Shown: positions 1 to 34,454 of the stretch, piece by piece | Position numbering within the stretch: the stretch's first letter is position 1 | Layout of the letters: each line of letters opens with the position of its first letter | Made by a program: the position numbers and the translations under genes | Virus record (IMG/VR): IMGVR_UViG_3300031992_004571 | DNA: 64,000 bases | Direction: 5' to 3' (one strand) | From: a virus | Notes under the pieces: generated by a model | The model's input: the letters and a program-made list of their open reading frames with translations, nothing else | Database searches by the model: none | What the model was told of the DNA's origin: nothing

Positions 1-630
1 TACAGGCTCCAAGTCTATCTCCTGTACGTTGGTGGCTTTCTGCTGTTTCTTATCGCACAGCTTAAAACGGATCTCATCAATGTCAAACTGAAGGTTTGTC
101 TTGTTCTGAACACTGAAATCAATGAAGAAATACTCACCAACAGTATAGACATTGTTCAAACGCATCTGCATATGATGCTTATTGGTCTTGATATTACGGT
201 ACTTAGCCGGACTGTTCCAAATCCTACGGGCATAACGCACCATTTCCTCTGTGCTCATGCTGACAGCAGGGTTATGGAAAGCGTTACGCTCATTGAGTTG
301 CACTTCCTTATCAGATACGGCTTCCTCCAGTCGCGTAGTGTAGATAAGAGCATACTGAGAGCGATAACGCTCGGTAACTACGGTAACGATAGCCAGAACA
401 GCACCATCCTCATGACCGCCCTCCTTGGGCTTTAAACGAATAGTGTTCTCAATAGGCTTGTCGCCGACAACCTTGTCGGTGGAGATGTCTACCAGACGGA
501 TAGGCTCTGAGGCAGTGATGACAGTAGTCACATTTTCGTTCACTGTAAGCTGTTCCATCTCATTGTACGTCTGCTGACCCATCATCTGGACAGCCGACAA
601 GGCGCAGAACAATAAAGCGCCCATTCTCAT
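1..630 (-). CDS. traN: Conjugative transposon protein TraN, N-terminal ~210 aa (gene continues beyond window start)
   Basis: Minus-strand ATG at 628-630 opens a frame with no stop down to position 1. N-terminus MRMGALLFCALSAVQMMG looks like a signal peptide. Sits immediately downstream of traM as in CTnDOT-type operons. Absent from the ORF track because it is truncated. Confidence 0.6.
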   Translation of the reverse strand, partial: MRMGALLFCALSAVQMMGQQTYNEMEQLTVNENVTTVITASEPIRLVDISTDKVVGDKPIENTIRLKPKEGGHEDGAVLAIVTVVTERYRSQYALIYTTRLEEAVSDKEVQLNERNAFHNPAVSMSTEEMVRYARRIWNSPAKYRNIKTNKHHMQMRLNNVYTVGEYFFIDFSVQNKTNLQFDIDEIRFKLCDKKQQKATNVQEIDLEPV

Positions 631-723
631 GTTAATCTTGCTTTTCATATCACGAAATATTAATATTTTTCTATTACCATATTATCGTATTACAATATTA
701 CAAATAATATTTTCATACTCAAA

Positions 724-1962
724 CTAACGCTTTTTCTCCTTCTTAGAATTCACAAGGTACACCTGTGTACCATACTTGATACGTACCTTATTCTTCTTAA
801 TGGCCTTGCTAATGGCATTAGAAGTACGCTGGTAGGCATTCTGCAAAGCCTGTCCGGCCCACTGGGTCATACTGTTGCCATTGCCCATCGTATTCATATT
901 CATGTTACTCTGCATGGCAGAACTACCGATATCCTTGGCAGTCTCACGGAACGAACTTGCAGGAACATAAAGACCCTCCAGACCATCCGTAGTGTCATAG
1001 ATAGAGAGACCAATCTTTAAGATTTCGTCACCAATAAGAACACTCTCAACCTTACCCTTCACGCGCTGCTGACCGAAACCGCTCATAGTAGCATAAAGGT
1101 AACTACCCTTTGTCAGCAAAGTACCGTTAACCTCAATATCATCCAAGAGACGCAGACGAACACGGCTACCCTCCACAGCCTTCACCTCTTCATCAATGAT
1201 AGCCTTGATGAGATTGCTACTCTTCTCATTCTGAGAAAGGGTATTGAAGTAGTCGGAATCTTCCTTCGACTTCTTAACAACGATATTATTCTCTGCATCA
1301 TCAGAGAGTTCCTTCACGGCATTCTCTTCCATCTTGACAGCCTTATCCTTAGCAGCCTGGGCGGCGGCTTGGGCAGCGGCAGCAATACTATCCTGGGCAT
1401 CGGCAACATCACCGATAGCAGCAGCACCCTTCGCACGGGCATTATTCAGGTCACGCTCCAACTCAGCCATCATACCCTTACGGCGCATCTCTAAGGCTCG
1501 CGCACGCTCTTCCTCACTCATAGGAAGAGAAAACTCATCACTGCTCATAGACTCGCCTTTCTGGGCAGACTGCTTCAAACGCTCCTGCAGACGCTTGATC
1601 TCTTCGGCCTGGGCCTCTTTCTCCTGCAGCAGCTTCAATTCCTCTTCTGAATATTTCGACTCGAAATCTTCCTTTCTCTTGATAGTGGTATCGGCATCTT
1701 CAACGAAGTCCTGGACGGCACTTCTGTCAACGATATCACCGAACACATCACGCACATTTTTACGCTTGCTGCCAATATCCTTGGCAACATTCGCTGTGGG
1801 AAGCTCTGAGTTCAAATACTCCGTAGTCTGCAAGTCCTTGGGTTCCTCGTCCTTGATCTCCACGTTAAAAAGGTCTATGAACAGCCAACCCAACACCAGC
1901 AAACCAACGTATGCTATCGTCGGGATAATATATTTCGGCTGTTTGAAATTAATCTTCTTCAT
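724..1962 (-). CDS. traM: Conjugative transposon protein TraM (N-terminal TM, long coiled-coil, C-terminal domain)
   Basis: 412 aa. TM helix IIPTIAYVGLLVLGWLFIDLF, a central charged coiled-coil (EELKLLQEKEAQAEEIKRLQERLK) and position between traL and traN. Confidence 0.7.
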   Translation of the reverse strand: MKKINFKQPKYIIPTIAYVGLLVLGWLFIDLFNVEIKDEEPKDLQTTEYLNSELPTANVAKDIGSKRKNVRDVFGDIVDRSAVQDFVEDADTTIKRKEDFESKYSEEELKLLQEKEAQAEEIKRLQERLKQSAQKGESMSSDEFSLPMSEEERARALEMRRKGMMAELERDLNNARAKGAAAIGDVADAQDSIAAAAQAAAQAAKDKAVKMEENAVKELSDDAENNIVVKKSKEDSDYFNTLSQNEKSSNLIKAIIDEEVKAVEGSRVRLRLLDDIEVNGTLLTKGSYLYATMSGFGQQRVKGKVESVLIGDEILKIGLSIYDTTDGLEGLYVPASSFRETAKDIGSSAMQSNMNMNTMGNGNSMTQWAGQALQNAYQRTSNAISKAIKKNKVRIKYGTQVYLVNSKKEKKR

Positions 1963-1994
1963 ATCACTATACCTTACTTGATTACTAACATAGT

Positions 1995-2318
1995 TTACTC
2001 ATGAGGGTGCAGACGCTCTTGTAACGCACTATCCACACGCTCCACGGCAACAGCCTTAGAAGGCACTCCCTGGTTATAGACACGCACCAGACGGTAGACA
2101 TTCACGATGAGACACATGAACACAAAGCCAAAAACGATAATGATAAATGCCATCTTATGAGCCTGGCCCCAGGCCTGCAGGTTCCTTGCAAGCCAACTGA
2201 TTCCGCTCTTCTGGGCAAACATACGTCCGGCTTCCACCTCACGCTCATAACGCTCCTTATACTTCGGGTCGTTCTTGTCAGGCATCGGCTCACCGATAAT
2301 CATCTTCTTAAAACTCAT
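1995..2318 (-). CDS. traL: TraL-like small membrane protein
   Basis: 107 aa with a single TM (AFIIIVFGFVFMCLIVNV), located between traK and traM. Confidence 0.45.
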   Translation of the reverse strand: MSFKKMIIGEPMPDKNDPKYKERYEREVEAGRMFAQKSGISWLARNLQAWGQAHKMAFIIIVFGFVFMCLIVNVYRLVRVYNQGVPSKAVAVERVDSALQERLHPHE

Positions 2319-2360
2319 AGTCTATTGCTTTTTTCTGCGAAAACATAAAGGGAATAACAA

Positions 2361-2978
2361 TTAATAGATGGTCTTGTTCTTCTGCTCCAAATCCTTGTTG
2401 AGCAAGGTACGCCAGTTGGTAATCAACAGACCATGAGGATTATTTTCCGTACGAGGGACACGCTTCAGGTTACCGGCGGTGACTAACTGACGCATGAGAA
2501 TATTCGTCCTACGCTCAATGCGCTGACGACCATAATAGGTGAAAGACATCTTTTCCTTATCAAAATCGATACTGTCACAAAAGATGCTGAAAACAGCACT
2601 GGTACCCATGATATTATTATAGAAGCCTTTCTCCTTCAAGGCATTATACTGGGCCACACCAGTCTCATCAACGAGATACATGGCTTTCTCCATCGTATAG
2701 TTGATATACTTATCATCCGGGGCCAACGTGAAAAACAGATGATGAAACAACTCGACATGACTCTTCGCTTCCACATCCAACGTCTCATCCATCGTCGTGC
2801 GCTGCACAAGGATAGGAACAGTACCGTCTAATACGTACACTTTCTTCTGGGCATCATCAACCATGCCTTTGGCGGTAAAGATGCTGCCTAACGAGATAAT
2901 GATACAACCAGCCATGAAAACACAGCTGACGATCATCACCAACTTGATCTTGTTTTCGAGATTCTTAATAACTGCCAT
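2361..2978 (-). CDS. traK: Conjugative transposon protein TraK (VirB8-like position)
   Basis: 205 aa with an N-terminal TM (LVMIVSCVFMAGCIIISL). Size and position match TraK. Confidence 0.65.
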   Translation of the reverse strand: MAVIKNLENKIKLVMIVSCVFMAGCIIISLGSIFTAKGMVDDAQKKVYVLDGTVPILVQRTTMDETLDVEAKSHVELFHHLFFTLAPDDKYINYTMEKAMYLVDETGVAQYNALKEKGFYNNIMGTSAVFSIFCDSIDFDKEKMSFTYYGRQRIERRTNILMRQLVTAGNLKRVPRTENNPHGLLITNWRTLLNKDLEQKNKTIY

Positions 2979-3006
2979 AGTTCTTTATATTTAGAAAATC
3001 AAACAT

Positions 3007-4188
3007 TTACTTCATAATACTCATAGCCTCACGCTTCGCATCACCGGCGATACCCTCACCAAAGTTACGGGTACTGAAAGCTGTATCACCCTCAGGGATA
3101 ATCCATGCGGCCAAATCAGGAACGAGGTTCAGACACTTCAAAGCCACAAGGCTTGCAACCAACAGATATCCAGCAGTCATAAAGGCATTCTGGAGATAGC
3201 CGGAGAAACCACCATCGAGAATACTCTGCAGATTCTCATACTGAATACTCAGCACGATATCAAACAGCAGCAACACATAGAAACCGACGAAGTATAACAT
3301 TGCACCGTAGAAATGTACGGTCATATACCTCGTTATCCATTTCGCCCAAGCGCTTTCCCACTTGGGCAAGATACTGAACGCCCACATCAATGGGCCGAAA
3401 ATTGTCAGCATTCCCAAAAGGATCTGCTGCACGAAGATGGTTCCCCACCAACCTACCCTGAACAGGGCAAGAGCAAGGAACATCACTATCTTATCCAGTC
3501 CTATCATCAGACCGGTATAGGTGCTCTGTAGATAGAACTTACAGGCTTTCTTCTCAGAGTCGGTTAACGTCTGATAACCGACATACTGGGTAATATCGCT
3601 GACACCAGCCTTATTCATACCATCAACGGTAGTCTTAGCAACGGCCATATAATGGTCGATACTATCCTGACGCTGCTTCAACGGCTGATGCAACTCATCA
3701 AACTTCGCCTGCACCTGTGCGGCCTCTATCTCATAGAGGTCATGGGTATAAGAACCTATACAGTTGGGAATATACGCGAGAACACCCAACACGCTGCCAC
3801 CAGTGCCATCATGCGGGTACCAGTAGAACATAACAATGGCAATACCAAGGACGCGCAGAATCTTCAGCACGTCAAACGGCTCACCCTTCACCATCATCTT
3901 ATACGCCATGCCTCCGGCAAGGATCAGGGCAAACAAGGCTCCAAGGGCCATACAGCACTCCAGAATCCACCAAAACGGACCGCTACCGCCAATAAATGTC
4001 GCATCGGTCAAAAACTCATTCGTCTGGAAGATGACATCATCAATCTCTTCATCGAACAGGTCAATGCCGATATTATTCACCAGACTGTCAGCAAGCTCCA
4101 TGCCCCCCTGGGCGTGAATAGACAATGCAGACACCATCATCAACATGATGGTTAACAGCATTCTTGAATGTCTCATCAATCTTTTCAT
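3007..4188 (-). CDS. traJ: Conjugative transposon protein TraJ (polytopic membrane, VirB6-like)
   Basis: 393 aa with a signal peptide plus multiple TM helices. Canonical position after traI. Confidence 0.7.
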   Translation of the reverse strand: MKRLMRHSRMLLTIMLMMVSALSIHAQGGMELADSLVNNIGIDLFDEEIDDVIFQTNEFLTDATFIGGSGPFWWILECCMALGALFALILAGGMAYKMMVKGEPFDVLKILRVLGIAIVMFYWYPHDGTGGSVLGVLAYIPNCIGSYTHDLYEIEAAQVQAKFDELHQPLKQRQDSIDHYMAVAKTTVDGMNKAGVSDITQYVGYQTLTDSEKKACKFYLQSTYTGLMIGLDKIVMFLALALFRVGWWGTIFVQQILLGMLTIFGPLMWAFSILPKWESAWAKWITRYMTVHFYGAMLYFVGFYVLLLFDIVLSIQYENLQSILDGGFSGYLQNAFMTAGYLLVASLVALKCLNLVPDLAAWIIPEGDTAFSTRNFGEGIAGDAKREAMSIMK

Positions 4189-4258: not shown

Positions 4259-5011
4259 TTATTCACTGGTTCCCACGCCGCCGCTACCAGCAGCCATAGC
4301 AACCTTCCAACGGCCATGAGCAGTACGGGCTATCAACCCGAACTGTGTCCTCGGTAAAGGACGGGAATTGTCATTGATACGCTTCACCTCCTTAGCAGAA
4401 CGGAGGTAAGCGATATACTCACATACCTCGGTATTCTGCAAGAGAATATCCTTATAGATAGCGATATACTGCTCCTTGCGCTTACCTTGCGGCATGTAAG
4501 CGTCACGGACAGCCTGCAAACCGCAGTTGATGGCATTATAACGCTCCATCCAGACAATATACTCTCTGGCTGGAGCACCCTCCTTCGTCAAAGACTCTAT
4601 ATTCTTCTTATAGATGGAAAGTTTGGACTCAATCTTGCTCTTCTCAACCTGCCAGGCGACATCAGTAACACCCGGTGTACGGTCTGCAATATTCAAAGCC
4701 TCGACACGCTTTCGCTCATTGAGCGCACTGTCAAGATTCTCAGCGTGACTTTCCTCTGGGGTCAACGCAAGTTTCAACTGACTACGATAGAACTGCTTAT
4801 TAGTCATCATGGCACCATTACGATAACTCTTATGAAAAGCATCGTAATAGAGATCAGGCGTGAAACTACCCGCACCGATCTCGCCAATGGTGAACTGGTT
4901 CATCACACTGGCATCATGGTTATAGGTCACATACTGGGCCTGAACCATCACAGCAGTCATCAAAACGACTGCCATCATCACCATCCTCCGTATGTCTCTT
5001 ATATATATCAT
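4259..5011 (-). CDS. traI: TraI-like secreted protein
   Basis: 250 aa with an N-terminal hydrophobic signal (MVMMAVVLMTAVMVQAQ), located upstream of traJ. The real start is possibly the internal Met near 4984. Confidence 0.45.
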   Translation of the reverse strand: MIYIRDIRRMVMMAVVLMTAVMVQAQYVTYNHDASVMNQFTIGEIGAGSFTPDLYYDAFHKSYRNGAMMTNKQFYRSQLKLALTPEESHAENLDSALNERKRVEALNIADRTPGVTDVAWQVEKSKIESKLSIYKKNIESLTKEGAPAREYIVWMERYNAINCGLQAVRDAYMPQGKRKEQYIAIYKDILLQNTEVCEYIAYLRSAKEVKRINDNSRPLPRTQFGLIARTAHGRWKVAMAAGSGGVGTSE

Positions 5012-5034: not shown

Positions 5035-5781
5035 TTAATAGTTCACACCCGATGCCTCCAAGGCACCACGCTTCCAACGCTCGAAGGCACTACCGCACAT
5101 CTCACCAATAGTCTTAGCCTGATAGAGAGAACGCTTGAAATAATGCGTCCTCACAGTCACATACTTCCAGATAACATAATAGGTATGATCAATACATCCC
5201 CGGATGTTATCAAGGCCCTCGTTGATATTACCAATCACAGTGAGCAATCCTTCAGTAGTAATATGGCGCAAGCCAGTGGCATACTGCGCCAACTCAATCA
5301 AACTATTCACAAGTTGATGACCATCCTCGCCGACCTGTTCAACACAGCGACGGCAAGCACCGACAATAATAGTGTCAGAAGATAAAATATCCCCCCGAGC
5401 AGTACACTTGGTCATAAAATCCTCAATTAGTGTGGATAACTGGCTGATTTTGTCTGACACATCAGAATAGGTATTCCTGACATTAATAACCATTACACCA
5501 CTGTTATAGATAACATCAATGACATCAAAACACTTCGTGTATTTATCAAGTTTCACGTTCAGCGAGTCATAATCAACACTCGCTTCCTTACTATACTTAT
5601 GCAGCAACTCGTTTGCCTGCTCCAGACCACTACGGGCCAACAGCACGCTACGAACACGCTTATGATCGTCAATCAACGCTTCGACAGACAGAAAATCAAA
5701 ACTCCACTGCGCACGACCCACCATGGGGACGAGCGTCAGCAGTAATACTGCAATCTGAAATATCTTTATAGTCCGTTTCAT
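5035..5781 (-). CDS. Secreted hypothetical protein in the tra operon (TraH position)
   Basis: 248 aa with signal peptide MKRTIKIFQIAVLLLTLVPMVGRAQ. No recognisable motif. Confidence 0.5.
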   Translation of the reverse strand: MKRTIKIFQIAVLLLTLVPMVGRAQWSFDFLSVEALIDDHKRVRSVLLARSGLEQANELLHKYSKEASVDYDSLNVKLDKYTKCFDVIDVIYNSGVMVINVRNTYSDVSDKISQLSTLIEDFMTKCTARGDILSSDTIIVGACRRCVEQVGEDGHQLVNSLIELAQYATGLRHITTEGLLTVIGNINEGLDNIRGCIDHTYYVIWKYVTVRTHYFKRSLYQAKTIGEMCGSAFERWKRGALEASGVNY

Positions 5782-5801: not shown

Positions 5802-8369
5802 CTAATCTTCATCCATATCGGCCATCACACTGGAGATGTCCTCACCAGAAGCAGCAGCCCTGGCACTACGACGCCAACGCTTGAAACTCTTCCTGCCGAA
5901 ATGTGTGCGGCCAGCACCATTCAACTGAGTAAGGCCCAAGGCACGTTTCAAGTAGTCCAACAGTGACTCACGAGAACGCATAAACTTCTCAATCAATACC
6001 AGTTGGGCGTAGATCTTCGACAATCGGTAATCGACATCACGGGCGACCTTCAGACGATCACAGACCCACAACAGATGAATAGCATCGGGGTCTTCGCCCG
6101 TGTCGGGTGGCGCACTATAGGCATAGTTCGCCTCAATGTCACAATCAGGATGCTCCTGCTGCAACTGATGCAGACGCTCATTGACCTGACGGGCCTTCTC
6201 TCTGTCATCCAAAGTAGGATCCATCTCAATGTAATCAACAATTTCACTGCTGTCAAAGTTCGCTGTCAGCGTCCAATGAACAGCAAGGATGGCACGGTGA
6301 TAACGGCCTATCAGCCAGTTATGACTTTCTGGACGCTCCAAAGTCAAATCAGCACGAAACTCCACCTCACCATGAAGGTTCGGAACATTGGCGTGTCGGA
6401 TATAGGAATAACCGACCCAGCCACCGGCATCAGTCCACGACAAACGATAGGCTGATTCCAACTCGTGCATGACAGCAGGAATACGGTATGTACCATCCCG
6501 TTCATCCGCATAGTCATCAACAATCTCTTGCTTCAAAGCAAGCCACTGATCGAGTTCACGCTGGGCAGTATTCAATTCTGCCTGCAAAGAACTAATCTGA
6601 GATTGGTTTGCCCTATACTGAGCACGTAACTCAGCAGCTTCCTCTACGCTGGCCTCGCTAATAGCGGCCAACAGTTGATTGTTCTCATTCTTCAAACGCT
6701 GAATCTCATTAGTGAGATTCGTCACCTGAGTGGTTAATTCGGAAATTCTCTGGTCTGCCTCAGGCGTTTCCGGCATTTCTGGAAGAGTAGTTTCCATAGC
6801 ATAACGCTTGGAATCTTCATCGAGAGCATGTTCTTGATCACCATTCTCTTTCCAAGAAAAACTTCCCTCACCAAGTTTTGCATTATCATGGCACTCCATG
6901 GTAAAGCTGACAGTGGCACAGCCCTTCATCTTGGCTTCATCGGCAGCATTGTAATAATGTTTCTCATCCTTACCAATATAATAAACCTTACCCTCTTCGT
7001 TGTCATTATATTCCGCAAGTTTTGCATTGAAACGAGCCTGGATTGCCTGCACGGCATCATACTGACTATCGAAAAGTTCCTCATAGACTTCCTCAGACTC
7101 ATTCCACCATCTATAGACATAGATACTATGTGCGTAGGCGAATGCCTTCGTATTACCAGACTTACTACCGTAAATTCTACTCGAAGACAAATAATTATAG
7201 AAACTATAATGATACTTATCACCGTTGTTCGTCAAACTCTCACATTGTGAACGACTCCAGCCTGCATAGTTCTCACTATTCCTTAATGAGTTCTCGTAGT
7301 CAGCAGAGGTGTAATGATAATTAATATCAGAAGTACTGACACGATACCACTGAGGACCATCAATGATGTTCCAGGAGTCCGAAGGTGGCTCATACTGACA
7401 AACGTAATCACCACCTTGATCACGGCTATAGATATACCACCTTTGAGTATAATACTGTCCTTGAAGCTCTTTGATATAGTCGCTGACATAACTGGTGATG
7501 TTATAGCCATCCAACGTAAAGAGGTTGGCAACACCGATACTATCAGTGCTGATAATCTTCTCCATTAGCAAATCCTTGATATTGCCAGGATCAGAAAAGT
7601 CCTCGTACATTTCCTTAAAGTCATCATAAAGCTCCAGTATCTCACCGGGCTTCATGTGGAAAATATCACCAACCTTACTACCGTTGATCCAAGCATCATT
7701 CAATACCGAACCGCCTGCGGATGCAATAGCACCTCCGGCGGTCATCAGACCATCCAGATCTTCCTGAAGGTCTTCCTTGGTGATACCACTACCGAAATCC
7801 GACAATTTATCCCAGAGACTCTTCCAGTCAACCTCACCTAACTTTGTCAAGTCAAAGAGGTCTTTGAGGTTATCATTGATAGCCAAAAAGGCTATATCTT
7901 GAAAGGTCAACTTACCATTGGCGACAACCGTCTCAAAAATCATGCACAACTGCTTTGTCTGCTCACAGACACGGAACAGGTAAGGCCCCCAATACATGGC
8001 TTTCTCGGGGTACTTAATCATCAACGTAGCAACGTCGATAATCTTCGGCATGATACGTGCACTTACCATCGTATAAATACGACGATAATAGAAATTCTCT
8101 TCAGCATTATCGAAAAGACCGGCATTCTGCAGGGCTTTCCTGTCAAGCCACTTTGAGGCAAAGATGCCAGCGGTGGCAACCTCAGCACTGGTATAATGGT
8201 CGAGAATCTTCTGCACACTCTCATCATTCATGGCCTCAGTAGCAGCCTCAGTAGCGTAGGCAGCAGTCATGGCCGCAATAGTCTTGGTATCTATATTGAT
8301 GCTCGCCCATGCTGCATGACACAGCACGGGGAACATCAGACTCAAGATGAAGAAGCCAATCCTACGCAT
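5802..8369 (-). CDS. Large secreted protein (855 aa) with a Tyr/Trp-rich middle, a central coiled-coil and a basic C-terminal tail, embedded between traG and traI
   Basis: Signal peptide MRRIGFFILSLMFPVLCHAAWA. Coiled-coil segment ISELTTQVTNLTNEIQRLKNENNQLL...LQAELNTAQRELDQWL. C-terminus FGRKSFKRWRRSARAAASG...DMDED. Not a canonical Tra protein of this size. Confidence 0.7.
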   Translation of the reverse strand: MRRIGFFILSLMFPVLCHAAWASINIDTKTIAAMTAAYATEAATEAMNDESVQKILDHYTSAEVATAGIFASKWLDRKALQNAGLFDNAEENFYYRRIYTMVSARIMPKIIDVATLMIKYPEKAMYWGPYLFRVCEQTKQLCMIFETVVANGKLTFQDIAFLAINDNLKDLFDLTKLGEVDWKSLWDKLSDFGSGITKEDLQEDLDGLMTAGGAIASAGGSVLNDAWINGSKVGDIFHMKPGEILELYDDFKEMYEDFSDPGNIKDLLMEKIISTDSIGVANLFTLDGYNITSYVSDYIKELQGQYYTQRWYIYSRDQGGDYVCQYEPPSDSWNIIDGPQWYRVSTSDINYHYTSADYENSLRNSENYAGWSRSQCESLTNNGDKYHYSFYNYLSSSRIYGSKSGNTKAFAYAHSIYVYRWWNESEEVYEELFDSQYDAVQAIQARFNAKLAEYNDNEEGKVYYIGKDEKHYYNAADEAKMKGCATVSFTMECHDNAKLGEGSFSWKENGDQEHALDEDSKRYAMETTLPEMPETPEADQRISELTTQVTNLTNEIQRLKNENNQLLAAISEASVEEAAELRAQYRANQSQISSLQAELNTAQRELDQWLALKQEIVDDYADERDGTYRIPAVMHELESAYRLSWTDAGGWVGYSYIRHANVPNLHGEVEFRADLTLERPESHNWLIGRYHRAILAVHWTLTANFDSSEIVDYIEMDPTLDDREKARQVNERLHQLQQEHPDCDIEANYAYSAPPDTGEDPDAIHLLWVCDRLKVARDVDYRLSKIYAQLVLIEKFMRSRESLLDYLKRALGLTQLNGAGRTHFGRKSFKRWRRSARAAASGEDISSVMADMDED

Positions 8370-11662: not shown

Positions 11663-12061
11663 TTACTCAGAAATACCGAAGAACAGAGGCAGAGCCTGGG
11701 CTGCTGCAATCAGGAAGATACAGGCACCCACGAGCATCATGATGCTCTTCTTGACATCCTGCTCCTCGTTGTTCATCTTGATGTACACGCTGATGGCACC
11801 AACCACAGCGACCACACCGGCGATGGCGTAGCACAGCTTCACAGCAACGGGAACATACTTCGCGATCTCAGTGGTGACAGTGCCGAGAGCAGTAGTACCG
11901 GCAGAATAGTCACCGGCAGAGTTCTGGGCGAACACAAAAGAGACCATGCAGAGCATCATAAGCGTAGCTCCGAAACGAGGCGACATCAACGCCTTCTCAC
12001 ACTTGTCGACGAGTCCCATCAGGGCACCCTTGACAACCTTAGAAAAACCTTTCTTGTTCAT
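11663..12061 (-). CDS. traE: TraE-like pilin-type membrane protein
   Basis: 132 aa with a signal/TM, a Gly/Ala-rich segment and a C-terminal TM. Confidence 0.55.
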   Translation of the reverse strand: MNKKGFSKVVKGALMGLVDKCEKALMSPRFGATLMMLCMVSFVFAQNSAGDYSAGTTALGTVTTEIAKYVPVAVKLCYAIAGVVAVVGAISVYIKMNNEEQDVKKSIMMLVGACIFLIAAAQALPLFFGISE

Positions 12062-12131
12062 TTTACTGAAAAAACGGTTAAATTAAACTTTGTGTTAACT
12101 GAAAATTGAGATATGGAATTTGATATTCTAA

Positions 12132-12512
12132 TCAACCGAAGGGAGACCCGGACGAGCCGACACTATAGCCGAAGAAGGCCGGCATGACAATGGTGGCACC
12201 AATGAGAAAAAGGATGGCTCCAAGGAGCATCAAGACTGACTTCGTAAAGCCTTCCTCACCAGCCTGCATCTTGATATAGATAACAGTGGCATTGTAGATA
12301 GCCAAGAGCGAAGCGACGGCATACAAAAGGCCGACGACATAACCCATCGTCAGCACGACTTCCTCCGTCATCTCAGCCAAAGCCTGAGCAGTCAGGGAAT
12401 AGTTGACACCACCATTGCTGACCGTGACAGCACCAACGCTGCCTACCGTCTGTAAACAGAACAGTAGCATAACCAATCGCCTGTATATCGTATTATTCTT
12501 CATCTTCATCAT
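12132..12512 (-). CDS. Second TraE-like paralog
   Basis: 126 aa with the same architecture as 11663-12061 (N-terminal TM, central segment, C-terminal TM AILFLIGATIVMPAFFG). Confidence 0.5.
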   Translation of the reverse strand: MMKMKNNTIYRRLVMLLFCLQTVGSVGAVTVSNGGVNYSLTAQALAEMTEEVVLTMGYVVGLLYAVASLLAIYNATVIYIKMQAGEEGFTKSVLMLLGAILFLIGATIVMPAFFGYSVGSSGSPFG

Positions 12513-15299: not shown

Positions 15300-16264
15300 A
15301 GCTTTGACCGTAACAAGGTAGCCGGTGGCTGACTCTCTTCAAACGCATCCGCTATCCGTGCTGAAAAACTATTATCCGTTTCCGTTATCCGTACCCTTAC
15401 GGACTATCCGTGGTGATAATCCGTGCCTGGGCCACTACGTGGAAAGGTAATCCAGAAGCATGTCCGTGTCACTCTAAGGCAATCCGTACTGCCGCTATTA
15501 GTCCCACTCTGGGCAGCATGGCATACCAATGTCGAACTCATTCAGAGGCGAACAATGTTCTGCTTCACCAGTATCGACGTTGGTGTGCTACATGCTTTGG
15601 TCGCCGGACATGATGGCAACGGTACGGATCTGTATCGCCACACAGACGAATGACAACAGGGGCGATGGCGTGCCTCGCGGACAGAACACCCGCAGGAAGG
15701 CGACTTAACGGACGGCGTGATGCTAAGATTTGTGCCAGAGAGGTGCTGCACTATGTCGATGGGTGCAACCAGTTACCACCTATCGCCATTTCCCGACGGC
15801 ATACTGCTGTCAGAAACCCCTTGCACGTCACCGCCGCAAATCCACATCCCTGCACGTTCCTATCACTTTCCTCCAGGTGTCCATGCCATGAGTCACTGAT
15901 GCCACCACACCCCTAACGTCATTCCCGCATAGTACGGGAACACAAGGCACCACATACTATGCCGCTTCCTCCGAGACGGTTTTCAACTAACTTCGTTAAA
16001 CACTTTTCTACCTTTGTACTTACATTTCCATCATTCAATTCAAGAAACACCAATAACAGCCCCATCACCATTCGTCCATCTGATAAGACCTTATTGTTCT
16101 CCCTGTTAGTGCAAGCATTAACCTGGAGTACACCCGGACACATCATCTGGAAGTCGGGCGATAACAAAACTTCCGTCGGGAACAGAAGCATAGTTATCGT
16201 GCCGATGGCACAAGCCCGTCTGGCGAATGGATCTTTGGACTGTATTAAATATTCAAATCAGGGT
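15300..16264. other. GC-rich (~52%) ~1 kb segment with no ORF over 90 aa. Either a decayed gene or a structured ncRNA.
   Basis: Six-frame track shows only short overlapping ORFs. Composition differs from the flanks. Confidence 0.4.
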
Positions 16265-19537: not shown

Positions 19538-20083
19538 ATGAGAACGAGCAAAGAAGAATGGGGGAGTTGGACTGACCGCTCCCTTTCATGGGACAGACAG
19601 AAGGAAATATCCCTTTCCTTCAAGGAGGGTACGACACCAGAACAGATGGTGATAGCCGCCATCGGGATAGCAAAGAGATATAACTGCAATATCCTAAAGC
19701 CTGTTGAATATACCTATGATGAGAGCAAGGCAGATCCTCACAAAATCGCCTTTACGGTGGAATGCCATAAGTTCACGTATAAATACTTCTATGAGGACGG
19801 CATCGGGCAACACCATAACAGCGAGACGGTGACGGAAAAGGATATCGCCAGATACAAGGAGCGTTTCGGTACCGACAAGTGCATCCACAGGGATTTCAAG
19901 AAGAAATTCTGGTACTCCAGTAACTGGAACGGTGAGACACGTGAGTTTCATTCGCTTAAGAAAGCCAAGGAGGCAGCAGCGAAAGAGATAGGGATGACAG
20001 TCTGGATCTACACCAACTTCCCATACGGCAGACCGTCAGAGATAGTATTTAAAGCCGAAGCATCAGGGATTACGCCTCCCTGA
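19538..20083 (+). CDS. Hypothetical protein (181 aa)
   Basis: Last ORF of array 1, convergent with the minus-strand block. Confidence 0.45.
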   Translation: MRTSKEEWGSWTDRSLSWDRQKEISLSFKEGTTPEQMVIAAIGIAKRYNCNILKPVEYTYDESKADPHKIAFTVECHKFTYKYFYEDGIGQHHNSETVTEKDIARYKERFGTDKCIHRDFKKKFWYSSNWNGETREFHSLKKAKEAAAKEIGMTVWIYTNFPYGRPSEIVFKAEASGITPP

Positions 20084-20383
20084 TGCTTTTGACTCTCTAC
20101 GTGCCTCCCTTATCAGCCGTCTCATGGCACACCGGGCAAAATGCTTGTTGCCCCGGCCTTTCTTATAATAGCGGTAGTGCCATTTCGACATTCCTCTCCA
20201 GAGTTGGTAATACGAACACCGTTCACTCCACGGCTTTCCAAAAACCGCAAAGCGAAGGTTTGCCAGGGATGGTGAAATATCCCTGTCCCAGAGCGTCCAA
20301 AAAACGACGAAAAACACACTGACGGCAATAAAGCCTATTATCACCCACACCACAACACCTGTGTAATAGAACAAACTACTCAT
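20063..20383 (-). CDS. Small membrane protein (start at internal Met)
   Basis: cat at 20381-20383. Protein MSSLFYYTGVVVWVIIGFIAVSVFFVVFWTL. The longer track ORF would overlap the upstream gene by 98 nt. Confidence 0.4.
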   Translation of the reverse strand: MSSLFYYTGVVVWVIIGFIAVSVFFVVFWTLWDRDISPSLANLRFAVFGKPWSERCSYYQLWRGMSKWHYRYYKKGRGNKHFARCAMRRLIREARRESKASGRRNP

Positions 20384-21420: not shown

Positions 21421-22320
21421 TTACTTCTCTTCAAACAGACTCCAGTCACGACCGACGGACACCATCTTATTTCCAAACACATAAGCATCATTGAAATCGC
21501 TGGCCGCAAAATTCCTGATGCTATCCTTCCAATAGATCTTCATACTCTTCTCAATGGCTATCAGGGTAGTCTTATACAGAAACTCATTACACTCCTTTAT
21601 GTCGTATGGCTCAAAGCCATTGGCATGACGGTTAGACATCAGCCCGATAAGGTGCTGATTACAGAAACCCGCAGTCTGCTCAATCATCCGGAAGCTGCTC
21701 TCAAAGTCCACTATTGGCTCGACACTTACAAAGGTCTTTAATCCCCACTGGCGACACCACCGCATAGTCTCGATACGCTCAGCGTTCGACGGAGCATGTG
21801 GCTCCAAGTCGTCACGTCCTGTAAGCGTAAAACCGAGTGCGATATTTATCCTATACGGACTGTCAATGAACTTACGAAACAAAGCCTTTCCTGTTCCGGC
21901 ATTCTTTGTGAGAATCTTCACAGGAATGTTATTCTTGGCAGCATATAAAGCCGCCTGAATAGTCAACTCGTAAGTATCTTGTGATAATGGATCCGTAGTA
22001 AACGAGAAGAAAATACCATGCTTAGCCAGATGGCTATACCATTTCTCACACTCACGCTTGAATACCAGGAGGGCATACTGCTCACCTGTCAGGTTACGGT
22101 ATTTCTTGGGTACATTACACTCCTTACTGAAGGAGTCCTGCAGATGGGCGTAAGGGAGTCCATTCACTGGGGCTGTGATACCCGTCCGATTATAGCAATA
22201 CTCGCATTGAAACGGACAACCACGATAGAAGTTACAACCCACTGCTGCATACTCTCTGGCAGCACCGCCAGGAGTATACAGACATTTTCCGTTTAACTTA
22301 ATCTCTTTCATAATCTTCAA
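21421..22320 (-). CDS. Radical SAM protein, SplB/DNA-photolyase-like
   Basis: GCPFQCEYCY fits the CxxxCxYCY radical SAM cluster motif of the COG1533/SplB type. 299 aa. Confidence 0.55.
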   Translation of the reverse strand: MKIMKEIKLNGKCLYTPGGAAREYAAVGCNFYRGCPFQCEYCYNRTGITAPVNGLPYAHLQDSFSKECNVPKKYRNLTGEQYALLVFKRECEKWYSHLAKHGIFFSFTTDPLSQDTYELTIQAALYAAKNNIPVKILTKNAGTGKALFRKFIDSPYRINIALGFTLTGRDDLEPHAPSNAERIETMRWCRQWGLKTFVSVEPIVDFESSFRMIEQTAGFCNQHLIGLMSNRHANGFEPYDIKECNEFLYKTTLIAIEKSMKIYWKDSIRNFAASDFNDAYVFGNKMVSVGRDWSLFEEK

Positions 22321-25303: not shown

Positions 25304-26320
25304 TTATTTATTTTCCTCGTGTTTTTTCAGATATTCTTCCGGCCAACATTTGTAACGCTTACGGAAAGCATCTCGCATACTGGCTATACCATCCTTATCG
25401 AGGTTATAGATGTTGTCAATAACCGCATGAGCGGAATGACATCCTGCTTCAATCTCAGAAACAACCTGGATCTTATTACGGACTTTCCCCGAATCATCGA
25501 CAATATCCTCCTGCACGGACTTCTGGGGACGGAGCCTATATCGTACTGACATATGGGGAAAGTACTTACGGAATGTAGATGCAAAAGCATCAATATTTTC
25601 TTTCTCCAAAAGTTCGTACTGCTCCTTTGTCACAGACAGTTGAATAAGCCTGTCTGAAACGAAAATCGTATCAATATAAACGTCGCTTACGATATTCTTT
25701 GTTTCTTTATCAGGAAAAAGACTACAGAAGTCACGAAGAAACTCCGGCCACTGACGGTAAACCGACTGACGAAGATTCTCTTCATTCTGCCGTCGGGCAA
25801 GATATTCTTCATTCATATATTCTTGACGCTTTGCTTCACATTCTTCAGCAAAATCCTTCAAGGCACAGGTGATAACCATCGGGTCAACCTTCCCGTAGAA
25901 CTTACCGAAATGACCGCACTTGAAACGATAGAAGAACATTTGCATCACAGAATACTTCATATCCTTGTACTCCTGGGCCAACAGCAGAGCCAGTTTCTTA
26001 GTCTGTTCATCGTCCATATTCTTGGAACCAGTGAACTTGTTCAGATTGGCAAGGGCTGTGACAAGCCACGACGAAGCAGACTCTGGCCCAAAAGCAGAGT
26101 CAAGCATCCCCAAAGTGGAATAACCCTCCATGATGGACTTACGTTCATCAGAGGCAAAGATTGCCTGCGTATCAGGATTCACTTCAACATTGAAGTTCTC
26201 ATACGACTGGTAACTCTTTCTGAGGTGTTCCACCGCCAGAGCGCAAGTCTTTGATGATGTTGACTGCGCCTGTATAGATGTCCTCGCCTGTGCGATAGCC
26301 GTTGTTACTGTCTGTTCCAT
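25304..26320 (-). CDS. Hypothetical protein (338 aa, probably shorter from an internal Met)
   Basis: The track ORF overlaps the upstream gene by 122 nt. An internal Met at ~26131 is the likely start. Confidence 0.4.
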   Translation of the reverse strand: MEQTVTTAIAQARTSIQAQSTSSKTCALAVEHLRKSYQSYENFNVEVNPDTQAIFASDERKSIMEGYSTLGMLDSAFGPESASSWLVTALANLNKFTGSKNMDDEQTKKLALLLAQEYKDMKYSVMQMFFYRFKCGHFGKFYGKVDPMVITCALKDFAEECEAKRQEYMNEEYLARRQNEENLRQSVYRQWPEFLRDFCSLFPDKETKNIVSDVYIDTIFVSDRLIQLSVTKEQYELLEKENIDAFASTFRKYFPHMSVRYRLRPQKSVQEDIVDDSGKVRNKIQVVSEIEAGCHSAHAVIDNIYNLDKDGIASMRDAFRKRYKCWPEEYLKKHEENK

Positions 26321-27167
26321 TAGTTCTATTTTTTTTGTTCAACTTATCTTCCTGGATAATCATCCAACTGCTGAAATGATGCTTTGCATCTCCGAGATTC
26401 TGATGACGTTTGCCGGAGATCTTGACTTCCTGCCCCCAACGCTGTAGGTATTCATCAAGAAGTTGCTCATTGACACCAAGAAACTTGAAACGCATGAAAA
26501 CCTGTTCCTTCCAGATGGGACTGGCGCGAAGCACGGTAATTTCTGCATCTACATCGGCGCACACCGTCTGGTCATCGGCACCTACCACCGGCCCCTCACC
26601 CTCGCGTGCACGGGTATCCGCACTCGAAGAGTGCTCTCCTTTACTTTCCTCTCCTTTACTTTGTGTACTTTTTCCGGAGTTATTCGGGGTTTCTTCCAAA
26701 TTATTATTTATTTCTTCCGAATTAAATATGGTTTGTTCCGAAGAAACTACCTTTTTATCGGAATTAACCTGATTAGGATTCAAGTTCACAACTAAATATG
26801 GAGTGTTATCCGGAAACTTACGTTTGGCGACAGTACAGAAGGAAATATAACGCTCCTGAATACCATGCGAAGTGAGTACCTGATGAGTATCGAAAACAGT
26901 CTTATCAAAAAGACCGATAGTGATGCAGTAATTGATAATGTCTTGAATTGTATCTTCCTCTAAACCAGAGATTTCAGAGACAATGAAAGGCAAATCTTCA
27001 TCCCAAGGCAGATAGTAGCCAGAGGCATATATCTGACATAACAGAATATGATAGACCGATACCGCCTGAACACCTTTATGGCGTATCAGTTTACGAATCT
27101 TAATGTCCTGATAGAAATTCACATCGTTCGTGAAATAATCAAGACCTTGCTTCTTTGGTCGTGCCAT
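26199..27167 (-). CDS. DUF4373 (Lin1244/Lin1753-like N-terminal) replication-initiator-like protein with a low-complexity SEE(T/I) linker
   Basis: MARPKKQGLDYFTNDVNFYQDIKIRKLIRHKGVQAVSVYHILLCQIY matches the DUF4373 phage replisome-organizer N-terminal pattern. Confidence 0.55.
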   Translation of the reverse strand: MARPKKQGLDYFTNDVNFYQDIKIRKLIRHKGVQAVSVYHILLCQIYASGYYLPWDEDLPFIVSEISGLEEDTIQDIINYCITIGLFDKTVFDTHQVLTSHGIQERYISFCTVAKRKFPDNTPYLVVNLNPNQVNSDKKVVSSEQTIFNSEEINNNLEETPNNSGKSTQSKGEESKGEHSSSADTRAREGEGPVVGADDQTVCADVDAEITVLRASPIWKEQVFMRFKFLGVNEQLLDEYLQRWGQEVKISGKRHQNLGDAKHHFSSWMIIQEDKLNKKNRTNGTDSNNGYRTGEDIYTGAVNIIKDLRSGGGTPQKELPVV

Positions 27168-30548: not shown

Positions 30549-31367
30549 TTAGAATAGTTTCGGTTCCAAATCATAGTTATACACCATCACCTCCTGCTTG
30601 CGTCTCGCTTTTCCCTTGAAGTTCGCAACACGCATCGGCATATCCTTCACGGCCATGTTCCATCCATTCTGGGTGACATACTTACGAAGCATATCAGAGT
30701 CGAAGTTACACAACAGGAACTTTCCATGAAGGTGTGTGAGCATTTCGAGCAATTCCTCGAAATGCTCAAAGGTATAACCCTTATAGTGCTTCTGTTCACA
30801 ACCCGGATAAGGTGGATCAAGGAAAAAGAAGGTCTCTTCACGGTCACGCTGCTGGATAACCAAAGAGGCATCACGGCAGCTTATCTGCACATTCTTCAAC
30901 CGCTCATGGAGCGCAGGGGTGAATGCCTGACGGTAGTGTTCCATCACGATACCGCTATGACTGCCAGCAGTACCGTTGTCCCACTTCCAACCGCCACTCG
31001 GCGAACCAGAGAAAGACATATTGGTAACAAGCCATACCGCCCAGGCTAACTCTACCTTATTACCATAGCAACGGTCAGGATCAAGCCACCACTGATAGGC
31101 TGTCTTGTAATATCTCTCACTGTGAAGCGTCTGCTGCACTCGCTCCATCAACTCAGCAAACATCTTTTCGTCCTGGCACACCTCATAGAAGGTTATCAGA
31201 CGGTCATTGGTGTCATTGATAACCTCCAGATAACTCTTACCCTTGGCAAAGAAAACAGCACCACCGCCAAAGAACGGCTCACAATAGATTTTGTGAGACG
31301 GCATCATGTTAATGATGGTCTCTGCCAGCTGCTGCTTTCCTCCATAGTATGTTATAGGTGTACGCAT
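30549..31367 (-). CDS. Orphan DNA adenine methyltransferase, D12 class (Dam-like)
   Basis: PITYYGGKQQLAETII...YCEPFFGGGAVFF (motif I) and FFFLDPPYPG (motif IV DPPY). The track ORF begins at a TTG codon at 31403. ATG Met13 lies ~31366-31367. Confidence 0.8.
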   Translation of the reverse strand: MRTPITYYGGKQQLAETIINMMPSHKIYCEPFFGGGAVFFAKGKSYLEVINDTNDRLITFYEVCQDEKMFAELMERVQQTLHSERYYKTAYQWWLDPDRCYGNKVELAWAVWLVTNMSFSGSPSGGWKWDNGTAGSHSGIVMEHYRQAFTPALHERLKNVQISCRDASLVIQQRDREETFFFLDPPYPGCEQKHYKGYTFEHFEELLEMLTHLHGKFLLCNFDSDMLRKYVTQNGWNMAVKDMPMRVANFKGKARRKQEVMVYNYDLEPKLF

Positions 31368-31369
31368 AA

Positions 31370-32305
31370 TCAGAGATTTATAACATTGGATTTCCTTTCC
31401 CAAATCATCTTCTCAGAATCGGCAGCAATGATGGCATCCACATCCATGCCGAAATGGAGATGCAGACTCTCTAACAGGTCTTCAAGTTCCGTCAATGACT
31501 TCTTACCGAAATTGCGAAACTTCATCAAATCGGTCTTGTTACACTTCACAAGGTCGTAAAGTGTATCAACGTCAGCACCTTTTAAACAATTCAAAGACCT
31601 GACAGAAATGCCTAAATCATAGACTGGCGTATTCATCATGGCGGTAAAGGTTCCACCTTTATCACCTAACAGGTAATCATATTCTGATACTGGTGCAGTA
31701 TCGATATTGTTGATACGCTCCAGTTTCTTGACACGGTTCTGCAATGCTTCAATAACATTCTGGAAATTGGTATTGTCAAAAACAAGTTGCTTATATTCCC
31801 TACGTAACTCAGAGAACGTCTTCACCGTGGCAAGTTTGCGCACGGCATGACTGACAATCTGCATGATACGACTACGGGTAAGACCGTACTCTTCAGCCAC
31901 ATATTCCACATCCTTACCTTCAAGAAGCATCGTAAGAATAGTTTTCTCACGTTCTTTCAGTACATCGTCACCACTGGCCTCGATGATAACCGAAAAAATC
32001 TCATTGATAAGATGTGCGGGAACACCTTTTCCTAACAGGTGGATGGCAGAACGGGTATCATCAAGATTCTTCTCTAACTCCTTCTCTGCCAACTGAAGGT
32101 CACGCTTCGCCGCAAAGATTCTCTTTTCAATGAAAGCCAAGTCTGACAACGTATCGAAATACTTCTCGATAGTCGCTTTGTCTATCTTTAACAGACGGTC
32201 AACAAAATGACCTTTCAACACGCCCTTCTCAACCCAGTTGGAAATGGTCTGAGGGGTGACATCCAACAGCAGAGCTGCTTCGTCTCGGGATAAAAGCCTT
32301 GCCAT
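31370..32305 (-). CDS. Multidomain regulator: N-terminal excisionase/MerR-type HTH, central sigma-70 region-4/LuxR-like HTH, and a C-terminal RNA polymerase alpha-CTD-like (HhH) domain
   Basis: [114 protein letters not shown]. Confidence 0.5.
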
Positions 32306-32609
32306 ATAATACTTCTTTTTATCGTTAATTACTCGTGGAAAGGAAAGCACTTCTGCTTTCTACATCACAATTGGACATCCAAGAATAACCAGATGCATGG
32401 TTATCAATCCGCTGCCCCACTATGTAACGCTGACACTGCCCTTTTAAAAGGCAGTTGACACCCTCACAAAACAGATATAGTTCATTCTTTTCCATAATCA
32501 CTTATCATCTAAATTCAACCTGCTACAAGCGGCCAGACCAGCCATGATAAAACCCATGAGAGTACCAAGGAGGAAACCGATGCCTCCGAAAACAAAATTC
32601 ATTAACATG

Positions 32610-34313: not shown

Positions 34314-34454
34314 TGTCTTTAATAAAATCTGGTTTGAACGAATAAGCATGAAGGTTACCGCCGCCCTCTCGCCAGGCGAAACCACCGTTCCATAGATGAA
34401 CCACCTCGGCATCATCCGGAATACGGCTTATCAGTTCCTTCAACTTCTTACCAT

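Follow-up and report, generated by a model that had tools for sequence, protein, structure and literature searches.

The conjugation genes of plasmid R388 are arranged in the order VirB2-B3-B4-B5-(Eex)-B6, where Eex is an entry-exclusion lipoprotein encoded in the same gap as VirB5. VirB5 proteins are too divergent to be detected by sequence or fold and have in common only a signal peptide and an N-terminal helix-loop-helix; the F-plasmid protein TraH (UniProt P15069) has been assigned as a VirB5 only via a predicted interaction with TraG (VirB6) and immunogold labelling at the tip (10.64898/2026.07.31.741991; PMC12624023). In the type IV secretion system (T4SS) operon of the CTnDOT type compared here, the gap between TraG and TraJ holds only a 118-amino acid (aa) DUF3876 lipoprotein (TraH, LQSC; L048) and a 209-aa DUF4141 protein (TraI). 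The stretch of DNA analyzed here, 64,000 nucleotides (nt) of IMG/VR virus record IMGVR_UViG_3300031992_004571 (the window), carries a T4SS operon that, judged by its genes, is of the Bacteroidota mating-pair formation (MPF-B) type and not of the CTnDOT subtype. Between its VirB4/TraG and TraJ-like genes lies a gene for an 855-aa exported protein of an orphan family, X855, followed by genes for a 248-aa protein, Y248, and for a DUF5045 protein. An earlier note on this DNA had described the 855-aa open reading frame (ORF) as an insertion into the operon.

The gene is no insertion. X855 is a fixed core gene of one Bacteroidales T4SS lineage, since the gene order around it is kept across 46 loci and in a system whose X855 is only 26% identical. 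Wherever the contig reaches, that order is DUF4134-DUF4134-DUF4133-VirB4-X855-Y248-DUF5045-TraJ-TraK-107aa-TraM, with the exception of one locus (L042), whose genes beyond X855 have been inverted or rearranged. The neighborhood is unchanged around the most distant X855 examined (P0223; 26% identity, 948 aa), and two loci, L037 (7483-9903) and L044 (5141-7644), have truncated X855 and VirB4. In the window, X855 is separated by 39 nt from the VirB4/TraG gene and by 20 nt from the Y248 gene, with no terminator-like site in either gap, and on Prevotella sp. pE2-28 the X855 gene overlaps VirB4 by 8 nt. A sigma-70 promoter scan is uninformative for Bacteroidota. The ORF reported earlier exists but is read on the minus strand. 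Its placement within the mating-pore operon is correct, as it follows VirB4/TraG and precedes the TraJ-like, TraK and TraM genes, and so is the remark that CTnDOT has nothing comparable in this gap. It does not, however, lie between traG and traI: the 248-aa ORF comes next, and after it a DUF5045 gene in place of one for a CTnDOT TraI (DUF4141). That 248-aa ORF, also held to be non-canonical, indeed falls outside every named family in Pfam and NCBIfam.

A word-indexed search of 5.8 billion proteins finds at least 1,268 homologues of X855, and of the 120 listed almost every one aligns over its full length, which shows that the ORF is a genuine gene and did not arise by chance. Most of these listed homologues have no Pfam domain, two have a sub-threshold Seryl_tRNA_N coiled-coil match, and the one source name among them is 'hypothetical protein'. 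An exhaustive HMMER search with the family profile, covering 1.84 billion cluster representatives, yields 469 X855 clusters at 50% identity, typically 740-950 aa long. In PLSDB, tblastn locates X855 on five records, which represent four genera of Bacteroidales, with 69% identity on Prevotella sp. pE2-28 and 38-43% in Phocaeicola, Parabacteroides and Segatella. A scan of one genome per species adds 44 loci from genera that include Prevotella, Segatella, Hoylesella, Hallella, Xylanibacter and Phocaeicola; one of these loci is in a rumen Prevotella metagenome-assembled genome (97% identity). Carriers of the lineage are Prevotella/Segatella megaplasmids and an integrase-bearing Parabacteroides element with type VI secretion system (T6SS) genes. 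In this Parabacteroides distasonis element (L002; positions 1-3203, 15453-16223 and 19648-20130), T6SS genes (vgrG) and the integrase adjoin the T4SS operon, among whose genes lie two for DNA methyltransferases and one for a cytoplasmic-looking protein of 212 aa; the element resembles a T6SS-carrying integrative and conjugative element (ICE), though it is deposited as a plasmid.

The protein is predicted to be exported. Its sole hydrophobic segment (residues 3-26, Kyte-Doolittle above 1.5; residue numbers here count Met1, which was left out of the alignment and model queries, where numbers are one lower) follows MRR and precedes CHA↓AW. Homologues begin with typical Bacteroidetes signal peptidase I (SPase I) signal peptides ending in ...[R/K]AQ↓[Y/W], in agreement with the Sec signal peptide proposed earlier, and no conserved lipobox Cys is present among the family N-termini. 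An AlphaFold2 model built from 61 diverse sequences (predicted local distance difference test score, pLDDT, of 82; predicted template modelling score, pTM, of 0.43), which improves on a model from a 24-sequence alignment (pLDDT 63), divides the remainder into an N-terminal helical domain, two β-rich domains separated by a coiled-coil hairpin, and C-terminal helices (Table 1). The long predicted helices of the N-terminal domain span approximately residues 28-81, 93-118 and 121-149, and a Gly/Ala-rich part at ~190-240 is flexible. The conserved motif at the start of the mature protein weakly matches, at the profile level, the motif D-x-x-S-x-E-A-M found in the Y248 family.

Conservation is distributed unevenly along X855, with both ends conserved and the middle variable. 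Among close homologues, divergence is lowest in residues 24-150 (0.16) and is also low in residues 756-812 of the C-terminal helices (0.18), while it rises to 0.38 in a Tyr/Trp-rich insert and to 0.46 in the coiled-coil hairpin, the most variable folded segment. A Tyr/Trp-rich middle had been noted earlier and is evident (27 Y/W in residues 301-450). The insert is considered optional because it is absent from ~30% of family members; its gap fraction is 0.23-0.32 and its conservation is low. The heptad coiled coil of ~110 aa described in the earlier note stands as a coiled coil but not as a continuous one, as the model instead has an antiparallel hairpin of ~86 aa with helices at residues 536-572 and 575-621. 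Among 91 representatives, Cys493 in β-rich domain 1 is present in 99%, Cys743 in β-rich domain 2 in 100% and Cys142 in 92%. Cys493 and Cys743 likely form an inter-domain disulfide, which would fit an exported protein.

A motif near the C-terminus connects X855 to its neighbors. The X855 version, KSFKRWRRSARAAASG, has counterparts in Y248 (SAFERWKRGALEASG, with AFERWK at nt 5071-5088) and in the DUF5045 protein (TAHGRWKVAMAAGSGG, with AHGRWK at nt 4304-4321). Column statistics for each family give the consensus Φ(-8)-[A/C](-7)-x-x-A(-4)-Φ(-3)-x-R(-1)-W(0)-[K/R](+1), in which the Trp is present in 98%, 100% and 100%, and the Arg at -1 in 59%, 94% and 96%, of X855, Y248 and DUF5045 sequences, respectively. 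Only these three proteins, of the 196 ORFs in the window (ATG-initiated, at least 60 aa, all frames), have [A/S]-x(2,3)-R-W-[KRQLHE] within their last 35 residues. All three retain the Trp motif in the 26%-identical system, and the Y248 gene is always directly downstream of X855. In the model, the X855 motif sits in a helix, beyond which the residues vary in length and charge. These patterns point to the R-W helix as a common docking or assembly motif of the trio.

C-terminal signals for T4SS translocation act on cytoplasmic substrates. The basic C-terminal stretch emphasized in the earlier note does exist (GRKSFKRWRRSARAAASG, residues 825-842, with an acidic end after it), but its interpretation as such a signal is rejected, because a Sec-exported protein would be inaccessible to a cytoplasmic coupling protein. 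In addition to the Sec signal and the invariant Cys pair, the stretch falls in the motif-bearing helix with its near-invariant Trp, common to the two secreted proteins encoded downstream, and the extreme tail is variable and, in this protein, acidic.

The trio is also among the fastest-evolving parts of the T4SS. Median identities to the window proteins, given for a distant set of relatives (those with VirB4 less than 85% identical) and for a closer group, are 67% and 87% for VirB4, 60% and 86% for TraJ, and 75% and 94% for TraK. The corresponding values are 40% and 69% for X855, 33% and 70% for Y248, 39% and 73% for DUF5045, and 44% and 66% for TraM.

Searches for known relatives of X855 return little beyond the family itself. 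Scans of Pfam, NCBIfam and PHROGs give only sub-threshold coiled-coil matches (FlxA, Seryl_tRNA_N, SMC, tape measure) and no toxin or enzyme domain, and a relaxed Pfam scan (E ≤ 10) of the N-terminal 286 aa gives no match. Against the PDB, the single sequence has no match and a 61-sequence profile finds coiled-coil proteins only; the comparison of folds suggested in the earlier note resolves the domains but, in Foldseek searches of the AlphaFold2 model, produces no PDB match at E ≤ 1e-3. In the exhaustive profile search of cluster representatives, all 150 listed matches cover the family's own profile, most of them over its full length, and no other family is linked. The VirB5/TrbJ family PF07996 is matched neither by full-length X855 (E ≤ 0.01) nor by its N-terminal 286 aa (E ≤ 10), hhalign gives a probability of at most 1.3% against R388 TrwJ, and the ~220-aa helical bundle fold of TraC (1R8I) or TrwJ (8RT9) is not found in X855. 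Profile matches are likewise absent for CTnDOT TraH (DUF3876, PF12992), CTnDOT TraI (DUF4141, PF13605; hhalign probability at most 0.9%) and F-type TraH (PF06122). There is no match to HlyD-family models in Pfam or NCBIfam and no N-terminal membrane helix or lipid anchor, nor is there a match to a type IX secretion system (T9SS) C-terminal sorting domain (e.g. TIGR04183), the X855 C-terminus being predicted helical. A match to the MacAB-TolC complex (E 7e-4) obtained with the pLDDT 63 model is not reproduced with the better model, for which the best membrane-fusion-protein match has an E of 0.06; because the match vanished, a membrane-fusion-protein relationship is not relied upon.

The earlier note had asked whether X855 might be a widespread and already characterized TraH-family protein. 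It is widespread, but it does not belong to the TraH family, and no characterization is found in Coyne 2014, the PvCTn paper, the pMMCAT preprint or T4SS reviews. The portion of the PvCTn gene table considered, which does not include the rows directly after traG1, has only small hypothetical proteins before traJ. It is a guess that the 'SMC' genes in two transferred regions of Coyne et al. 2014 encode X855-type coiled-coil proteins. A profile search with Y248 in the 5.8-billion-protein database finds unannotated orthologues only. Homology of X855 to Y248, to DUF5045, to the corresponding proteins of the pBF9343, Pontibacter, Hymenobacter and Sphingobacterium systems, to CTnDOT TraI and to TrwJ is not claimed, because the hhalign matches are motif-level or non-robust. 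X855 is best regarded as a lineage-specific structural or accessory part of the T4SS for which relatives are detected neither by family nor by fold.

The gap between VirB4 and TraJ contains genes for 2-4 Sec-signal proteins in every Bacteroidota T4SS examined. Beyond the CTnDOT pair, these are proteins of 224 and 218 aa in pBF9343, 223 and 207 aa in a Pontibacter plasmid, 194, 217 and 217 aa in a Hymenobacter plasmid, and 219, 218, 226 and 278 aa in a Sphingobacterium plasmid. All gap proteins of the five compared systems have a hydrophobic signal-type N-terminus, and CTnDOT TraH and the first Hymenobacter protein are lipoprotein-like. X855 is absent from all five operon types and is considered lineage-specific and unusually large because the other gaps hold only smaller proteins. 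The second small gap protein of Pontibacter is a relative of DUF5045 (hhalign probability 93%), as, more weakly, is that of pBF9343 (45%). The X855 N-terminus reaches a probability of 73% with one small gap protein, a match that is not robust, and Y248 resembles the first small gap protein at the motif level only (D-x-x-S-x-E-A-[M/L]-I-x-[D/N]-H-K against LDITCMETLIANHK / VVFDPAVVSTLVVNH). After the signal peptide, CTnDOT TraI starts AQ↓WVVTDPGNLAQ, the first Pontibacter gap protein AQ↓QVVFDPAVV and the R388 VirB5 protein TrwJ AQ↓GIPVFDGTRAL (L048 7291-7920, L051 4676-5347 and L049 5206-5886 for this comparison). This likeness is a lead and not a statistical result, but it may be that DUF4141 proteins are the MPF-B homologues of VirB5.

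Shared C-terminal sequences are also observed among other gap proteins. Three Sphingobacterium paralogues (L053 2909-4912) end in ...DK-x-[I/L]-[I/F]-x-x-I-x-x-N, and two Hymenobacter proteins (L052 4592-5902) end in ...[E/H]-[K/E]-L-Y-G-V. It may be a general property of the VirB4-TraJ gene slot in Bacteroidota T4SSs that its proteins have a C-terminal tag in common.

Tentatively, and at somewhat less than even odds, X855 can be read as a structural part of a stalk in the periplasm or of a pilus-distal assembly, in which Y248 and DUF5045 are its partners. A role in the pilus or at its tip is a best guess. X855 would be a Sec-exported, soluble and probably disulfide-stabilized subunit of the mating-pair-formation apparatus, assembling with Y248 and DUF5045 into a periplasmic stalk or a pilus-distal subassembly. 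The conserved helices at both ends of X855, those of the N-terminal bundle and those of the C-terminus with its R-W helix, would form a base for docking on the machine or on one another, and the faster-evolving β-rich/aromatic domain and the hairpin would project from that base toward the outer-membrane channel or the recipient cell. We infer the stalk or tip localization, the formation of a complex by the trio and the contact with the recipient from the export of X855, its fixed synteny, its place in the VirB4-VirB6 gap, the motif of the trio, and the combination of conserved ends with a variable middle. Within such an arrangement, it may be that Y248 is VirB5 proper and X855 an enlarged partner.

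Several observations weigh against a stalk or tip subunit of this kind. No similarity of X855 to VirB5, TrbJ, CagL or F-TraH proteins is found in sequence or in fold, and X855 is about four times the size of VirB5. Y248 (~220 aa when mature) seems the better VirB5 candidate, as the counterparts that come first after VirB4 elsewhere start with VVFDP or WVVTDP, comparable to IPVFDG in TrwJ. Matches of X855 to Y248 and the small gap proteins, with hhalign probabilities of 6-73%, are not robust and are inflated by signal peptides. Finally, rate alone is no mark of exposure, because TraM also diverges fast. A bolder proposal, possible but doubtful, is that X855 is itself a giant, fold-novel VirB5-type protein that forms a heteromeric stalk-cap or pilus-tip complex with Y248 and DUF5045 via the R-W helix, with the variable insert and hairpin setting the range of recipients. 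If this were true, X855 would be a host-range determinant for a dominant class of conjugative elements of the gut and rumen, among them T6SS-carrying ICEs and the megaplasmids of Prevotella.

A different structural role, which we regard as unlikely though worth retaining, is that of a periplasm-spanning scaffold or adaptor that is never surface-exposed and links the inner-membrane VirB4/TraJ components to the TraM/TraN outer-membrane core. The layout of the AlphaFold2 model, in which a ~65-Å hairpin flanked by β-domains could act as a spacer as in membrane-fusion proteins, is compatible with this, as are the predicted soluble periplasmic state of X855, with neither lipobox nor T9SS domain to export it to the surface, and its position as a core gene next to VirB4. 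Yet the MacAB-complex match is gone with the better model, X855 does not have the N-terminal membrane or lipid anchor typical of membrane-fusion proteins, and the hairpin, as the most variable segment, would be an odd choice for docking onto a conserved channel. It is rather improbable that X855 is a mating-pair-stabilization adhesin or a surface or entry-exclusion factor that acts once the pilus has made contact, comparable to F TraN or to the periplasmic C-terminal domain of F TraG. Its large size, its export, its variable aromatic-rich and coiled-coil parts, its restriction to one lineage and the presence of the R388 entry-exclusion lipoprotein in the same gap could all be explained in that way. 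However, X855 has neither an outer-membrane β-barrel nor a lipobox nor a T9SS signal that would place it on the surface, the exclusion proteins known so far are small, and strongly conserved ends together with the trio motif suggest integration into the machine rather than a free adhesin.

The earlier note had also raised the option of a co-transferred effector or toxin recognized by the T4SS coupling protein through its Arg/Lys-rich C-terminus. Although a basic C-terminal stretch exists, this is very improbable: the family-wide Sec signal and the invariant Cys pair point to the periplasm, beyond the reach of the coupling protein, no toxin or enzyme domain is found, the conserved part of the C-terminus is the R-W helix common to two structural neighbors while its extreme end is variable in length and charge, and a fixed core-gene position is not cargo-like. 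A recent insertion of cargo unrelated to conjugation might be proposed from the absence of X855 in CTnDOT-type and several other Bacteroidota T4SS operons, but it is effectively refuted by synteny, as X855 occurs in the same place wherever the contig reaches in the 46 loci and in the 26%-identical system and co-diverges with the operon, with intergenic gaps of only 20-39 nt and the VirB4 overlap of pE2-28.

The remaining genes of the operon have more conventional assignments (Table 1). The VirB4/TraG protein of the window is long, at 994 aa compared with 766-946 aa in the other Bacteroidota operons; TraG family models cover mainly its C-terminal ~260 residues, and its N-terminal part is weakly TraC-like. 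A tandem DUF4134 pair (11663-12512, minus strand) is present in the X855 lineage, and one copy is present in the CTnDOT-, pBF9343-, Pontibacter- and Hymenobacter-type operons compared. The two DUF4134 genes may encode a two-pilin filament or a pair of major and minor pilins.

Table 1. Positions in the window of X855 and its parts, of the other T4SS operon genes and of cargo-like genes.
Feature	Position	Strand	Basis or comment
X855, 855-aa exported protein, orphan family	5802-8369	minus	ATG at 8369, stop 5802-5804, 855 codons
X855 Sec (SPase I) signal peptide, residues 1-19	8313-8369	minus	Hydropathy and family N-termini
X855 conserved mature N-terminal motif S-x-N-x-D-x-x-T-x-x-A-M, residues 23-34	8268-8303	minus	Family N-termini; D27 invariant
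X855 N-terminal helical domain, residues 25-302	7464-8297	minus	AlphaFold2, core pLDDT 77-93
X855 β-rich domain 1, residues 303-531, helix-packed β-hairpins	6777-7463	minus	AlphaFold2, pLDDT 83-95
X855 optional Tyr/Trp-rich insert, residues ~321-425	7095-7409	minus	Two-stretch matches of ~745-aa members
X855 antiparallel coiled-coil hairpin, residues 536-621	6507-6764	minus	AlphaFold2; coiled-coil matches only
X855 β-rich domain 2, residues 630-752	6114-6482	minus	AlphaFold2
X855 conserved C-terminal helices, residues 769-841	5847-6065	minus	AlphaFold2
X855 C-terminal R-W motif, residues 827-842	5844-5891	minus	W832 in 98% of family
DUF4134 (VirB2/TrbC-like), first copy	12512-12132	minus	Pfam
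DUF4134 (VirB2/TrbC-like pilin), second copy	12061-11663	minus	Pfam
DUF4133 (VirB3-position)	11709-11341	minus	Pfam
VirB4/TraG ATPase, 994 aa	8409-11393	minus	Pfam, NCBIfam; P-loop_TraG E 4e-117
Y248, 248-aa Sec-signal protein	5035-5781	minus	No Pfam/NCBIfam family
DUF5045 protein, 250 aa, Sec signal, third trio member	4259-5011	minus	Pfam E 1e-21
TraJ-like polytopic protein (VirB6-position), 393 aa	3007-4188	minus	Synteny; NCBIfam TraJ E 2e-8, below family cut-off
TraK	2978-2361	minus	NCBIfam E 1e-83
107-aa protein, no family	2318-1995	minus	Operon position
TraM	1962-724	minus	Pfam, NCBIfam
Flotillin/SPFH protein, 487 aa	35810-37273	minus	
Radical-SAM protein	21421-22320	minus	
PAPS-reductase-domain protein	49196-50176	plus	
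492-aa protein, weak phage-integrase SAM-like domain	44230-45708	plus	

Elsewhere in the window, a minus-strand cluster at 30549-34415 encodes a D12-class N6-adenine methyltransferase (284 aa), a 601-aa C5-cytosine methylase and a 326-aa fusion of helix-turn-helix, sigma-70 region 4 and RNA polymerase alpha C-terminal domains. A similar protein with an RNA polymerase alpha C-terminal domain adjoins the coupling-protein gene in L002. The genes for a DUF6633 protein and a Lin1244_N/DUF7833 protein are adjacent at 25304-27167 (minus strand), and four further genes, for the flotillin/SPFH, radical-SAM, PAPS-reductase-domain and integrase-like proteins listed in Table 1, are cargo-like. The 64-kb window contains no tRNA genes, and a megablast search of positions 14000-38000 against the plasmid collection gives no match.

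Much of the mobile DNA of gut and rumen microbiomes is moved by conjugation machines of the MPF-B type. The papers searched contain no structure of such a machine, and 'DUF' or hypothetical is still the annotation of several of its genes. A lineage-specific accessory subunit of a T4SS is not in itself very surprising. X855, however, is a large orphan family that forms a fixed part of one major MPF-B lineage, and a three-protein module with a common C-terminal motif offers a testable handle on MPF-B architecture, on the stalk or tip, and on recipient range.

Several described systems invite comparison with X855, among them other occupants of the same gene slot. The small gap proteins (190-280 aa) of pBF9343, Pontibacter, Hymenobacter and Sphingobacterium are exported and are encoded in the same gap, but none has the β domains or the hairpin of X855. 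CTnDOT TraH and TraI also occupy this gap, but X855 matches neither family and does not have the lipobox of TraH. VirB5, TrwJ and TrbJ proteins are minor pilins of the stalk cap and pilus tip in VirB-type T4SSs, with a VirB5 pentamer seated on that of VirB6. Like X855, they are encoded in the VirB4-VirB6 slot (for X855, between VirB4 and the VirB6-like TraJ), have a Sec signal, are soluble (a predicted periplasmic state in X855) and have long helices right after the signal peptide. X855, like VirB5, also evolves faster than the ATPase and the channel core. Nevertheless, VirB5 has ~220 aa, whereas X855 has 855, with two β-rich domains and a coiled-coil hairpin. F TraH is similar in that it is exported, exceeds the usual size and cannot be recognized as a VirB5 from its sequence or fold, although X855 has no PF06122 match and differs from it in size and domain content.

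The closest parallel to the trio is provided by CagH, CagI and CagL of Helicobacter, three operon-linked proteins of pilus biogenesis whose shared C-terminal motif is needed for localization, pilus formation and secretion; CagL is regarded as a VirB5-like tip protein (PMC3164655). In both cases, three side-by-side T4SS genes encode proteins that have a short conserved C-terminal motif and no homologues in other T4SS types. The Cag proteins serve effector delivery whereas the X855 system serves conjugation, and the two sets have no sequence relationship; the motif of the trio is an internal-to-terminal R-W helix and not a terminal hexapeptide. The parallel is one of functional analogy and not homology: as with CagH, CagI and CagL, the X855 trio consists of three operon-linked proteins with a common C-terminal motif.

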